DNA of 64,000 bases from an uncultured bacterium (GTDB lineage: Bacteria; Desulfobacterota; BSN033; UBA1163). Below, piece by piece: positions 13,535-54,864 of the stretch. Every line of letters starts with the position of its first letter. Position 1 is the stretch's first letter. The translations under genes and the position numbers were made by a program. The DNA lies in contig CALLAL010000034.1 of NCBI GenBank assembly GCA_938002255.1, positions 32,674 to 96,673 on the forward strand. Direction: 5' to 3'. The notes below the pieces were generated by a model. That model did no database searches. It was given only the letters and a program-made list of their open reading frames with translations, and had not been told where the DNA came from.

Positions 13535-13617
13535 AGAAGTTACCCTCCTTGGGGGATAAAGTAATGGAATATTAGTATAAACGACAAAAAAAAAGCAAGA
13601 ACATATTATTAGGAAAG

Positions 13618-13839
13618 GTAATCCCTCACAGAGGATCAAAAAAAAGGGTGGGGAGGGTTCTTCGGAAAACCTTTGAAGCGACACCTTTGTCCTTTAAATG
13701 TCCACTGCTTGGTTTTCAAACTCCCGATTCAAAGGGCATGGAGACCCAAGGAGATTGCCTCCTTGCTCGCTTTTCAAGGGTTTGGAGAGGGACCTTTCCC
13801 ACCCTTTTAAACCATCCTACCCCATCACTGAGGGATTAT
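13618..13839 (+). mobile_element. Structured repeat element copy 1 (MITE-like or ncRNA)
   Basis: Ends GTAATCCCTCA...TGAGGGATTAT; flanks TAGGAAAG/TGGGAAAG; long internal hairpin; homologous to 54396-54625. Confidence 0.7.
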
Positions 13840-13958
13840 TGGGAAAGACCGATATGTTCCAGTAATAATAATTTTCTTTACAAATCATGGAAGAGATGTG
13901 ATAAGATATCATCCGATGAGAAAGGAATCCATTGCAACATAGAAGGAAAGGAGGAATT

Positions 13959-27315: not shown

Positions 27316-28017
27316 ATGAGGATGAAACTTTCTATCATTCTACCGGTTTTAAATGAAGCATCAGGTATTGTAAAAACTCTTCAAGCACTTCAGCCGTTTC
27401 GAGAGGCAGGTCATGAAGTTATTGTCGTGGATGGGGGAAGCGAAGATGACACAAGGGTTCTTTCAACCCCCTATGCGGATCAAGTGATACAGGCCTCAAG
27501 GGGTCGGAGCCGCCAGATGAACGCTGGAGCAAGATTGGCAACGGGTGAAATCTTTATCTTTCTCCATGGCGATACTATCCTACCTTTACAAGCAGATCAT
27601 CTCATCACTGAGGGGATGAGCAGAAGAAAGAGGGCATGGGGACGTTTTGACGTGAGGCTCTCAGGATCCCACCCCTTTCTTCGGGTCATCGAATTTCTGA
27701 TGAACTGGCGTTCCCGGCTCTCGCAAATCGCTACCGGTGATCAAGCTATTTTTGTCAGGCGTACACTCTTTGAAGAAATGGGAGGGTTTCCGGAGATCGA
27801 CTTAATGGAAGACATTGCCCTGTGCAAGATATTGAAAAAACACAGCCCCCCTCTTTGTCTCCGTCAAACGGTTTTAACGTCAAGCCGTAGATGGGAAGAA
27901 AAGGGATTGTTCCGAACCATCTTCCTCATGTGGTTGCTGAGATTGTTTTATTTTCTTGGATTAAACCCAAACCGACTGGCAAAACTCTATTATCCAAAAT
28001 ACGAATCGCACAAATAA
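27316..28017 (+). CDS. TIGR04283-type glycosyltransferase (rSAM/selenodomain-associated transferase 2)
   Basis: PVLNE, VDGGS, GRSRQMNAGA, GDQAIFV, LMEDI, TSSRRW. Confidence 0.85.
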   Translation: MRMKLSIILPVLNEASGIVKTLQALQPFREAGHEVIVVDGGSEDDTRVLSTPYADQVIQASRGRSRQMNAGARLATGEIFIFLHGDTILPLQADHLITEGMSRRKRAWGRFDVRLSGSHPFLRVIEFLMNWRSRLSQIATGDQAIFVRRTLFEEMGGFPEIDLMEDIALCKILKKHSPPLCLRQTVLTSSRRWEEKGLFRTIFLMWLLRLFYFLGLNPNRLAKLYYPKYESHK

Positions 28018-51574: not shown

Positions 51575-54241
51575 TTAACACTTCTCGACCCTAACAACTG
51601 ATACTTTTAAGTCAGGGATTTTCGATTCAGGATCGAGTACTGTATTGGTGACGAGATTTACAGGGGTCTCTGCAAAGTGAAATTTTGCAAAAATCACTCC
51701 CCGCGAAACTTTTTCCGTTACTTTCACCCTGGAAGTAAATTCACCTCTTCTACCAATCACTTTGATCTGATCTCCTTCTTTGATTCCAAGCTTCTCTGCA
51801 TCGGAGGGATTTATTTCTACTAAGCTTTCCGGACACATTTGATTAAGAAGTTTCACTTTTCTGGTCATGGAGCCGGCGTGATAATGGTAATAATCTCTTC
51901 CTGTACTCATAATAAACGGAAAATCTTTGTCAGGAACCTCTGGAGGAGGCGTATGGTCTACTGGAACAAACAGCCCTTTTCCCCTTACAATCCTTCCTTT
52001 GTGAAGAAAAGGGGTGCCCGGATGGGTTGTATCAGGACAAGGCCATTGAAGACCTCCGGACTCAAGCCGTGCATAAGTAATTCCTGCATATTGGGGAGTG
52101 ACTTTTCGGATCTCTTCGAAGATCTCTTCTGGATCTTGATAATCCATTGGATATCCGAATCGTGAAGAGAGTTCACAGAGAATCTCCCAGTCCGCGCGAG
52201 CACCTTTAGGTCCACCAATCACCTTTCTAACCCTCTGAACCATCCTCTCGGTATTGACAAAAGTTCCATCCTTCTCAAGAAAGCTGCGTGAGGGAAGGAC
52301 AACATGGGCCAACTTGCCTGTTTCAGTCAGGAAGATATCCTGAACCACCAGAAGTTCTAATTTGCCATAGGCTTTTTTAAGATGCGAAAGGTTTGGATCA
52401 GTGACCATGGGATTTTCTCCCATAATATAGAGTGCTTTAATCTTTCCTTCATAAGCCGCCTCGCCCATTTCGACAACCGTCAATCCTGGTTTATCGGAGA
52501 GGGGAACTCCCCATGCACTCTCAAATTTATCTTTAAACTCTTTTATAGCGACTCCTTGATATCCTGGGTAGACCGTCGGCAGGCAACCCATGTCGCAGGC
52601 TCCTTGCACATTGTTCTGTCCTCTCAAGGGATTGACACCGCTTCCGGGTTTTCCTATCTGACCGCAGAGTAGCGCAAGGTTGGAGATTGCCTTGACTGCA
52701 TCCGTTCCTTTGGAGTGTTGGGTGATACCCATACAGTAAAGGATGGCTGCGTTTTTAGCTGTGGCATATGTCCTTGCTGCATGGATCAGCCGATCTTTGG
52801 GAATTCCTGTGATTTCTTCAACAACCTCTGGCGTGTAATGGGAAACTTTCTCCCTTAAGGCTTCAAATCCTTCTGTATGCTGTTCGATAAAAGGTTTGTT
52901 GTAGAGTTTCTCCTGGATGATGATATGAGCCAGTCCGTTTAACCAAGCAATATCGTCTCCGGGTTTGGGTTGAAGATGGAGGCAAGCCTCTTCGACCAAA
53001 TCAATCTTTCTTGGATCGACCACAATGATTTTGGCTCCATTGAAGCGTGCACGATGTCTCAAGAGCATCCCAATGACAGGATGCGTTTCCGTTGTATTGG
53101 ACCCAGTCACCAGGTAGAGGTCTGCTTTCTTTAGATCTGCAAACGAATTGGTCATGGCTCCAGAACCGAGGGTGGTGGCCAGACCGACCACCGTGCTGGA
53201 GTGTCAGAGACGGGCGCAATGATCAATATTGTTTGTCCCGATTGCTGCACGGATGAATTTTTGGAAGAGATAATTCTCCTCGCAAGTGGCTCTTGCGGAG
53301 GCGAGACCTGCAATGCTATCCGGTCCGTCTTTCTCTTTGATCTCCTTTAATTTGGCTGTCATATAGGTAAGGGCTTCATCCCAGCTTGCTTCTCGAAACC
53401 CACCATTTTCCCGGATGAGAGGTGTGTTCAGCCTCTCAGGGCTCTGAACAAATTCAAAACCAAACCTCCCCTTCACACAGAGGGTTCCATGGTTGGTCCC
53501 TAATCCTTCTCGTGTGGTGACCTTAATAAGCTTATCGCGAACAACATTGACTTCCAGAGAACAGCCGACTCCGCAATATCCACATACAGTGGTCACCCGT
53601 TTCGCCTGCCATTTCCTTCCTTTGAGGGAGCTCACATTTTCGGTGAGGGCTCCCACAGGACATGCGGCAAGACATTCCCCGCAGGAGATGCATCTCTCTG
53701 GTCTGACGGCTTCGACCCTTGCACGAAAACCGGTTTCGATCAGATCAAGAACCTCCCTGCCAGCAATCTCTCTGCAGGCCCGAATGCAGCGGCTGCAGAG
53801 AATGCATCGATTGGGATGATACTTGATCGCAGAGGTAGAATAGGTTCGATATTCTTTCGGTTTGATTTCGACTTGGTATTCCGCTTTTTCAATTCCATAT
53901 TCATAGACATAATCCTGGAGATCACATTCTCCTCCCTTGTCACACACCGGACAATCAAGAGGATGGTTCACTAACATGAATTTCAGCACTTCTTTTCTAA
54001 TCTCCCGAATCTTTGGAGTATCGGTCTCGATCACCATGCCATCCACGGCTGGCGTGTTGCAGGCGGTGACAGGATTCTGAAGGCCATTGACTTCAACGAC
54101 ACACATCCTGCAAAAGCCTGTTGGAATGAGGCTCTCCATGTGGCACAGCGTGGGGATGCGGAATCCATTTTCTTTGGCAATCTTTAAAATGGTAGCACCT
54201 TCGGCGGTCTCAATAGCTCTGCCATTGATGGTGATTCTCAT
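51575..54241 (-). CDS. fdhA: Selenocysteine-containing formate dehydrogenase alpha subunit (~888 aa)
   Basis: Two track ORFs joined in frame at TGA 53204-53206: NIDHCARL-U-HSSTV. N-terminal 2Fe-2S and HPLDCPVC clusters, CGYCGVGC, LRGQNNVQG; no Tat signal. Confidence 0.92.
53176..53203 (-). promoter_or_regulatory. SECIS element of fdhA
   Basis: GGUGGUC-GGUCU-GGCCACC hairpin about 11 nt after the UGA. Confidence 0.8.
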
Positions 54242-54320
54242 CGTGATCCTCTCCTTTTAAAAATTGGACAATTCCTCTTAAAAAATATTCTTGTGAAGCT
54301 CGCCATATTGGATTTTAACT

Positions 54321-54375
54321 TTGTGAAATATTTAATTAGCCACTAATCAATAGAACAACCTATTTAATTTGTCAA
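54321..54375 (-). promoter_or_regulatory. fdhA promoter with Rex-like site
   Basis: Minus strand TTGACA at 54370-54375 with a weak -10; TTGTGAA-ATAT-TTAATTA at 54321-54338. Confidence 0.4.
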
Positions 54376-54395
54376 GTAAAAAAAAGGGGGGCTGT

Positions 54396-54625
54396 GTAAC
54401 CCCTCAGTTAAAGAAATAAAAAAGGGGTGGGAGGTTGCTTCGGAAAAACCTTGAAGCGCGAAACCTCTGTTCGTTAAAACGACCCAATCTGATTCAAAAA
54501 AATCCGATTCAAAGGGCATGAGGGCCCTGATGGGGGTAACCCCTTTTATAACCGCTATTCAAGGTTTTGGAGGAGGAACGTTCCAACCCTTTTAAACCGA
54601 AAACACCCCATCACTGAGGGATTAC
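54396..54625 (+). mobile_element. Structured repeat element copy 2 (MITE-like or ncRNA)
   Basis: Ends GTAACCCCTCAGT...ACTGAGGGATTAC; flanks GGGGGCTGT/GGGAGCTGT; homologous to 13618-13839. Confidence 0.7.
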
Positions 54626-54864
54626 GGGAGCTGTGTAAAAAATCCGAAAATCTTTTTTGATTTAAATGAAAAAGAGGTAATGGATTTAAAACATATTGAA
54701 AATAAAAGATAATTGTAAAATTATGTTTAATTTTTTCCCCATCGGGAAACTAAACAAAAAGAGGGTTCTTAAAACGTTTTATGAAAAACTTGACAGACAC
54801 CAGTCGTTTTGAATATTCTACTCTTTCAAGCTTTAAGGGATTTCTTCTGGAAAAGAATTTAAAT

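Follow-up and report, generated by a model that had tools for sequence, protein, structure and literature searches.

The stretch analysed here, called the window throughout, comprises 64,000 nucleotides of contig CALLAL010000034.1 (positions 32,674 to 96,673, forward strand) from an uncultured bacterium of the Desulfobacterota (assembly GCA_938002255.1). In an original prediction made from its letters, two related palindromic copies were described in this window, and either targeted insertion or regulatory domestication was proposed for them. Direct sequence reading showed that the second one (copy 2) is a 230-bp palindromic non-coding miniature transposable element with inverted repeats (MITE) at 54396-54625, located in a divergent region with fdhA to its left on the minus strand and an AP-endonuclease-2 (nfo-like) gene to its right. 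The ORF scan yielded no open reading frame (ORF) of at least 60 aa between 54241 and 54781, and a simple promoter scanner predicted no sigma-70-type promoter inside copy 2. As argued below, copy 2 is very probably a non-autonomous DNA transposon derived from an insertion sequence (IS) of the IS66 family and inserted by targeting upstream of promoters. Its features are listed below, where TIR stands for terminal inverted repeat and A2 for an alignment in which 28 natural copies, taken from 9 genomes, were all oriented alike.

54396 to 54625, plus strand: MITE copy 2, 230 bp, a member of a 226-bp family with 87-96% identity to other full-length copies.
54396 to 54408, plus strand: left TIR GTAACCCCTCAGT; the same 12-13 nt end IS66-type elements in related genomes.
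54613 to 54625, plus strand: right TIR ACTGAGGGATTAC, with one mismatch relative to the left TIR.
54387 to 54395, no strand: left target-site duplication GGGGGCTGT, 8/9 identity to 54626-54634.
54626 to 54634, no strand: right target-site duplication GGGAGCTGT, 9 bp by direct sequence reading.
54420 to 54460, plus strand: 5' arm of the long internal inverted repeat, pairing with 54553-54593 (A2 columns 27-67 with 191-231).
54553 to 54593, plus strand: 3' arm of the long internal inverted repeat (A2 columns 191-231).
54370 to 54375, minus strand: predicted -35 hexamer TTGACA of the leftward fdhA promoter, 20 nt from the left end of copy 2, that is, the 9-bp duplication plus 11 nt.

The 13-bp TIRs GTAACCCCTCAGT / ACTGAGGGATTAC were complementary at 12/13 positions (54396-54408 / 54613-54625), as had been predicted. 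To count the family, an nhmmer profile and blastn were used on the 3.27-Mb, 59-contig genome, and the reverse-strand duplicate matches of the palindrome were removed. This yielded 82 loci of the 226-bp family, 60 of them with both ends located; these complete copies measured 215-234 bp, most of them 223-227 bp, and several contigs of the assembly ended within MITE copies. Duplications were seen directly next to the TIRs of 53 complete copies out of 60, with no more than two mismatches and with a sequence that differed from copy to copy. They were of 8 bp in 49 copies (29 perfect, 17 with one mismatch and 3 with two) and of 9 bp in four (one perfect and three with one mismatch, copy 2 among these), and seven copies had none. 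The 9-bp flanking repeats claimed for copy 2 are thus present and identical at 8/9 positions, but the norm of the family is 8 bp. Relatives with 70-78% identity occurred in 8 of 12 other genomes of the same genus; of 12 genomes from the other genera of the taxonomic family one contained them, and of 16 outside that family none did. It is the existence of this multi-copy family that excludes chance, and not the TIR pattern alone: with up to 2 mismatches allowed, the pattern had 3 matches in the window against a mean of 0.99 in 100 shuffles, 9 of which reached 3, and the third match (27583-27614) fell in coding sequence and was discarded as a chance match. In being small, non-coding, multi-copy and palindromic the family resembles the bacterial MITEs derived from IS, and it also shows TIRs, differing target-site duplications and, as described below, empty sites in relatives.

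We then read offsets outward from each element end in 138 flanks, 120 of which belonged to the 60 complete copies, over offsets 0 to 54. At offset 19, TTG started in 49 flanks, TTGA in 38, TTGAC in 27 and TTGACA in 18 (plus 4 TTGACA at offset 20), while the other offsets reached at most 9, 8, 4 and 4, respectively. In 49 of the 60 complete copies, a hexamer agreeing with TTGACA at 4/6 positions or more began at offsets 18-20 on one side or both (right side in 24, left in 17, both in 8). With a stricter threshold of at least 5/6, boxes at these offsets were found in 43/120 flanks, against 0-3/120 at six control offsets. Among all 138 flanks there were 48 such boxes, of which 38 started at offset 19, 7 at offset 20 and 3 at offset 18. 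These boxes behaved as parts of promoters in several respects. A -10 box at 16-18 nt was present in 21/48 box-bearing flanks and in 6.2% of 1762 random TTGACA-like sites (p = 1e-12), and the neighbouring gene read away from the element in 48/56 box-bearing flanks versus 32/62 boxless ones (Fisher p = 7.5e-5); the start codon lay at a median distance of 84 nt. The matches as they stood before removal of about 10 reverse-strand duplicates also had an A/T-rich tract and, five bases ahead of the hexamer, a T, neither of which formed part of any selection criterion. The offset was 19 in 29 of 33 cases with an 8-bp duplication and 20 in 3 of 4 with a 9-bp duplication, a rule that copy 2 obeys (9 bp, offset 20). 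Since the offset tracks the length of the duplication, it is the promoter-proximal joint that keeps a constant distance of 11 nt to the hexamer, and the distal one lies 8 or 9 nt further out. The end facing the promoter was the right one in 26 cases and the left one in 22.

Among the 60 complete copies, 23 were in divergent regions, 33 in tandem and 2 in convergent ones, 2 could not be classified and none was inside a gene. Divergent regions, which make up 15% of the regions by count and 22.5% by length, therefore held 23/58 of the classified copies (p = 7e-6 and p = 0.004, respectively). Such an enrichment, for which a test had been proposed in the original prediction, is what would be expected if promoters are the target.

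The same register was found in other genomes. In the sister genome G001, with copies of about 74% identity, both ends could be located at 16 of the 19 loci retrieved, and TTGAC stood at offset 19 in 8/16, with no other offset exceeding one. At the 10 loci with gene-bearing IS66-type elements that have this TIR, a box of at least 5/6 was at offset 19 in 6 of 12 visible ends (the right ends of L129 and L133, the left end of L132, and L180, L181 and L186). As a control, we took another IS66 lineage in G008, with 14 copies and other ends, and no offset-19 box was found at its 13 flanks. The latter lineage (ends ...GCTAAAGTGATAC) was also seen to break its assembly at at least 13 contig ends (L114-L126), and the side of it that was covered had no -35 box at any constant offset.

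The order of events could be read from orthologous loci. In G007 and G002 the fdhA-nfo spacer had the conserved TTGACA region and no MITE, and in seven congeners conservation of the fdhA promoter region extended roughly 10 nt beyond the hexamer, the sequence farther away not being conserved. In G004 (L169, G004:C14), a truncated related MITE with a different duplication was located 19 nt from the same fdhA hexamer, and it was probably an independent insertion at the same promoter. At two other loci, in the genome of the window (C3:28389-28720 and C40:212-490), an older copy, degraded or truncated, was separated from the promoter by a young MITE copy with the same 8- or 9-bp duplication. The same target was thus used twice at C3:28389 and C40:212 though the upstream sequence was already a MITE end, and recognition must therefore come from the promoter side. 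Taken together, these comparisons indicate that the predicted promoters existed before the insertions.

An alternative is that the elements inserted at random and that only those at harmless spots upstream of promoters survived. The absence of complete copies inside genes (0/60) is what purifying selection would give, and ORF calls put the coding share of the genome at about 89%. We regard this as very unlikely. Selection cannot set a register at single-nucleotide level, such as that seen in the 38, 7 and 3 boxes at offsets 19, 20 and 18, or in the 27 TTGAC at one offset with no more than 4 at any other of the 55. Moreover, convergent and other promoter-free intergenic DNA, which should be equally harmless, held just 2/58 copies. 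Neither the reuse of an 8- or 9-bp target at two loci, nor two hits 1 nt apart on the fdhA promoter in two species, nor the recurrence of the offset in G001 and in full-length IS copies would follow from random insertion.

With regard to the origin of these elements, the TIR GTAAYCCCTCAG adjoins IS66 transposase genes at L105 and L109 in related genomes and, likewise in genomes other than this one, at L129, L131, L132 and L133; it adjoins a DruA-like ORF at L180, L181, L186 and L191, also in other genomes. Counted together, these are 10 loci of related genomes where IS66-type genes are bordered by the exact TIR. At 21 of the 23 terminal bases, the MITE's right end agrees with that of the L109 element, L129 is a full element of 2435 bp with both TIRs, and L132, found in a congener, is a deletion derivative whose TIRs are exact. 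The transposases of these elements scored 130-138 bits with Pfam DDE_Tnp_IS66 and 227-239 bits with the NCBIfam IS66 model, and an IS66 transposase was present in 7/13 genus genomes searched. Upstream of the transposase there is an ORF of 296-297 aa that scored 103 bits against Pfam DruA (PF14236, of Druantia) and that recurs beside IS66-type genes at L131, L104 and L106. An AlphaFold2 model of this ORF from a 4-sequence alignment had a mean pLDDT of 39 and was not used. The ORF (about 297 aa; L129:181-1071, L132:588-1481, and also L131, L104 and L106) was also observed to match Mom more weakly. According to the ISfinder descriptions, the IS66 family is characterized by GTAA termini and 8-bp target duplications, and the family of copy 2 has GTAA ends and duplications of 8 bp, sometimes 9 bp. 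In the parts of the literature available to us, mostly outside subscription journals and without supplementary tables, no link between DUF4338 and IS66 was found and the pairing of a DruA-like ORF with IS66 was undescribed.

It could also be that a different transposase, for example one of the IS1634 family, mobilises the MITE and that the likeness to IS66 ends is coincidental. In its favour, the 17 nt GTAACCCCTCAGTTAAA stand directly before an IS1634-family transposase gene in contig C37 of the present genome (G000; 385 bits against NCBIfam), and no IS66 gene was found in the assembly. However, the true ends of this IS, established from ten copies in another genome, are CTTTTTTTCTACAG...CTGTAGAAGATCAG with 5-bp A/T-rich duplications, so that it was rejected as a partner of the MITE, whose 8-bp duplication and GTAA ends do not fit. 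The copy in C37 (212-2127, locus L013, with a transposase of 545 aa) had just inserted itself, at TTAAA, into a MITE-like end that was degraded. Considering also the 10 loci at which the exact TIR flanks IS66-type genes, we judge mobilisation by such an enzyme extremely improbable. Close relatives of the IS1634-family protein (66-92% identical) were seen in many metagenome-assembled genomes of unrelated anaerobes, and C37 and C38 overlap by 141 nt, with only a 103-aa ORF located there.

The element is a long imperfect palindrome, and this raises the possibility that it is a domesticated regulatory element or a structured RNA, that is, that the host keeps hairpin copies because they act on the neighbouring promoters or as functional RNA. 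Several observations speak for it. In A2, the TIR plus three arm helices make 48 pairs, with 95.7% of cells paired over the 9 genomes (90.5% in the TIR helix; 97-98% in the 35 pairs of the long internal inverted repeat), and when the partners were slid by 1-3 columns only 42-62% were paired. Double-sided changes were found in 7 pairs and 19 cells, against a shuffle mean of 6.4 cells, and of 500 shuffles none reached the observed cell count and one reached the pair count. In addition, the arms of copies 1 and 2 are more conserved (80/96 identical positions) than the centre (78/126), G·T greatly exceeds A·C among the mismatches on one strand, and the copies adjoin promoters.

Nevertheless, the fate of the individual copies does not agree with preservation by the host. 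The original prediction implied that substitutions would preserve pairing, and within the genome they did not: in 59 main copies, 355 of 8350 paired positions (4.25%) and 203 of 4904 unpaired ones (4.14%) were substituted, and the one-sided changes comprised 99 mismatches of G·T, 92 of A·C and 112 of other kinds. Pairing is therefore broken at the neutral rate, and individual copies decay neutrally after insertion. Either end faces the promoter (26 versus 22), the promoters read away from the element, which is then not transcribed by them, and none of the sigma-70 type was predicted inside copy 2. Against Rfam, the copies gave no match at gathering score, and what appeared when E was relaxed to 10 scored just 13-17 bits (E 0.75-3.9), which is at chance level. 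Neither of the signs that would mark a structured RNA, a curated family match or purifying selection on pairing in each copy, was thus seen in Rfam and in the 59 copies. Furthermore, the orthologous promoter regions of G007 and G002 are without the element, and symmetric transposase-binding ends or conversion between the arms would yield the same covariation. For these reasons domestication appears highly improbable. Of the two proposals in the original prediction, it is targeted insertion that finds strong support, in the fixed 19-nt offset in the genome, the sister species and the gene-bearing relatives, in the empty sites and in the two reused targets.

The palindrome would be a requirement of active source copies and is not preserved by the host at each locus, and the compensatory changes between lineages (7 pairs) fit a constraint on the mobile element's own long inverted repeat rather than a host function. 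It could represent two symmetric binding sites, a hairpin formed in transposition or the outcome of conversion between arms. The temptation to be resisted is to take compensatory changes in a palindromic repeat near promoters, which resemble those of a regulatory RNA, as a sign of function when the copies drift neutrally.

The other copy in the window (copy 1) illustrates the same setting in a divergent sub-lineage, and its features are the following.

13618 to 13839, plus strand: MITE copy 1, 222 bp, singleton of a divergent sub-lineage.
13610 to 13617 and 13840 to 13847: 8-bp duplication of copy 1, TAGGAAAG / TGGGAAAG, by direct sequence reading.
13593 to 13598, minus strand: -35-like hexamer TTGCTT of the predicted leftward P-type ATPase promoter, 19 nt from the left end of copy 1 and with TAATAT after it.

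Copy 1 lies between a P-type ATPase gene (minus strand) and a CMD-family gene (plus strand). Both copies are therefore in divergent regions and just outside a predicted leftward promoter, the left end facing TTGACA at 20 nt or TTGCTT at 19 nt, in agreement with the original prediction. Their common orientation was also seen, but it is a coincidence, the promoter-facing end being random in the family. The two copies are 74% identical (blastn), and no closer relative of copy 1 was found in this genome or in 12 other genomes of the genus. Standard pairs are formed at 46/48 positions in copy 1 and at 44/48 in copy 2. The inner arms read AAAACCTTGAA / TTCAAGGTTTT in copy 2 and AAACCTTTGAA / TTCAAGGGTTT in copy 1, and the compensatory change from C-G (copy 1) to A-T (copy 2) noticed there is real and corresponds to pair 55/203 of A2, one of three double changes that separate the copies (the others being 35/223 and 42/216). 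The side hairpin fared less well: GGGG-GTAA-CCCC is indeed present in copy 2, at 54523-54534, but it is private to this copy, the family consensus being GAGGGTAACCTT, and the hairpin is not conserved in the genus, where the alignment showed just 2 weak pairs.

Some observations concern the neighbouring fdhA gene. It occupies 51575-54241 of the window on the minus strand as two ORFs joined by an in-frame TGA (break at 53192-53203), which sits within the motif ...NNIDHCARLUHSSTVVG..., and by its sequence it encodes a selenocysteine formate dehydrogenase (a selenoprotein) and is not a broken gene. The stretch of about 75 nt from the fdhA start to the TTGACA box (CTTTGTGAAATATTTAATTAGCC...TTCAATAGAACAACC..., window 54290-54385) is almost invariant in 8 genus genomes (loci L168-L174) and is probably a conserved leader or regulator site.

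We compared the family with known systems. With the IS66-family IS it shares TIRs of 12-13 nt, identical to those flanking IS66 DDE transposase genes in relatives. Classical IS66 carries a TnpA/TnpB pair, whereas the gene-bearing relatives found here have a DruA-like (PF14236) ORF before the transposase instead. Ty3-type elements are eukaryotic, have a reverse-transcribed intermediate and an integrase, and target Pol III promoters, and the likeness of our family to Ty3 and the Pol III-targeting retrotransposons is an analogy of logic only. In the discussion of Guérillot et al. 2014 (PMC3942029), Ty3-type retrotransposons are described as inserting at a fixed distance from the transcription start through the initiation machinery, in a safe harbour. 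The closest parallel is in the same article: insertions of TnGBS, ISLre2 and the ISKra4 group lie 15-17 bp upstream of the -35 boxes of sigma-A promoters, in both orientations where the inverted repeats are symmetric or near-perfect, and for TnGBS-type elements a contact with the RNA polymerase initiation complex has been proposed by analogy with Ty3. A fixed distance upstream of the sigma-70/sigma-A -35 is thus common to both cases, being of 19 nt here. In contrast, those elements have Mutator-like (p-MULT) DDE transposases, IS66 not being mentioned in that article, and ours differs in its unrelated transposase (IS66, by Pfam and NCBIfam), its 8-bp duplication and its non-autonomous MITEs. 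The family of copy 2 therefore seems, as judged from sequence, to act like the TnGBS/ISLre2/ISKra4 group without being a member of it. Correia/NEMIS, RUP and ERIC are likewise short palindromic intergenic repeats with TIRs, often near gene starts (PMC10969869). However, Correia elements duplicate TA and carry their own promoters, and the accessible parts of that article describe for these repeats no register to a pre-existing -35, which is fixed here. Targeting upstream of promoters was not reported for IS66 or ISBst12 in the accessible parts of the literature referred to above (including PMC10969869, PMC11602168 and PMC8024623).

We believe that the following mechanism would account for these results. 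An IS66-type transposition complex, supplied in trans, would capture promoter DNA and measure from the -35 box, and would join the element, in either of its two orientations, at a point 11 nt upstream of the hexamer. Within this explanation, docking on promoter DNA held by the RNA polymerase holoenzyme is favoured by analogy with the TnGBS proposal, at somewhat under an even chance. Only slightly less likely is that the transposase, or the DruA-like protein acting with it, reads TTGACA and the A/T-rich tract directly, and it may be this DruA-like protein that selects the target. An insertion at this spot would spare the core promoter together with some 19 nt of upstream DNA and would disrupt no gene, and such a safe harbour would explain why some 80 copies are tolerated in an 89% coding genome. 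The conserved long inverted repeat and the compensatory changes of the lineages would then reflect the needs of mobilisation. More tentatively, and as somewhat less likely than not, we suggest that the IS66-type lineage with the DruA-like ORF and transposase and its MITEs may use the promoter, most likely as bound by holoenzyme, as a landing pad, joining exactly 11 nt upstream of the -35, and that this may be a second independent invention of promoter homing, after that of TnGBS and ISLre2 and, in its logic, of Ty3.

Several points weigh against the derivation from IS66 and the targeting of promoters. Neither the IS66 transposase nor the DruA-like gene was found in this assembly, and because of this we infer mobilisation by an IS66-type enzyme from the shared ends alone; these extend over 13-23 nt only, the interior of the MITE being unrelated to that of the IS, and L129 and L132 are without clean duplications. 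The promoters are consensus predictions and the gene calls crude ORF calls, and no RNA run was listed as containing the sequence. For fdhA itself the predicted -10 is a poor one (TATTGA), and the simple scanner did not call this promoter. For 11 of the 60 complete copies, neither side shows a -35-like box, and in 8 of the flanks with a box the gene beyond reads towards the element. The present data fit recognition through RNA polymerase and direct reading of DNA alike. Finally, among the arm mismatches between lineages, G·T predominates when the given strand is read (124 cells versus 23 A·C), and in helix 2 (27-48 / 210-231) four columns (38, 41, 45 and 46) are persistently G·T and no column is so for A·C. 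Such an asymmetry of the strands is a hint of a single-stranded form, for which the mechanism proposed does not account. Simple binding of a protein to double-stranded DNA does not explain the asymmetry either.

Bacterial transposons that choose their targets by reading the transcription machinery are rare, and the published case concerns one transposase superfamily. Targeting upstream of promoters is already known from TnGBS, ISLre2 and ISKra4, whose transposase is unrelated to that of IS66. A second, unrelated family with the same habit would mark promoter-upstream DNA as a recurrent safe harbour and would offer a contrast for working out how promoters are recognized. For the uncultured organism, about 50 element ends that point at -35 boxes with single-base precision amount to a free promoter map. 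If the landing-pad proposal is true, each element end would mark a real promoter, and the system would represent a compact, protein-only device for insertion into safe harbours.

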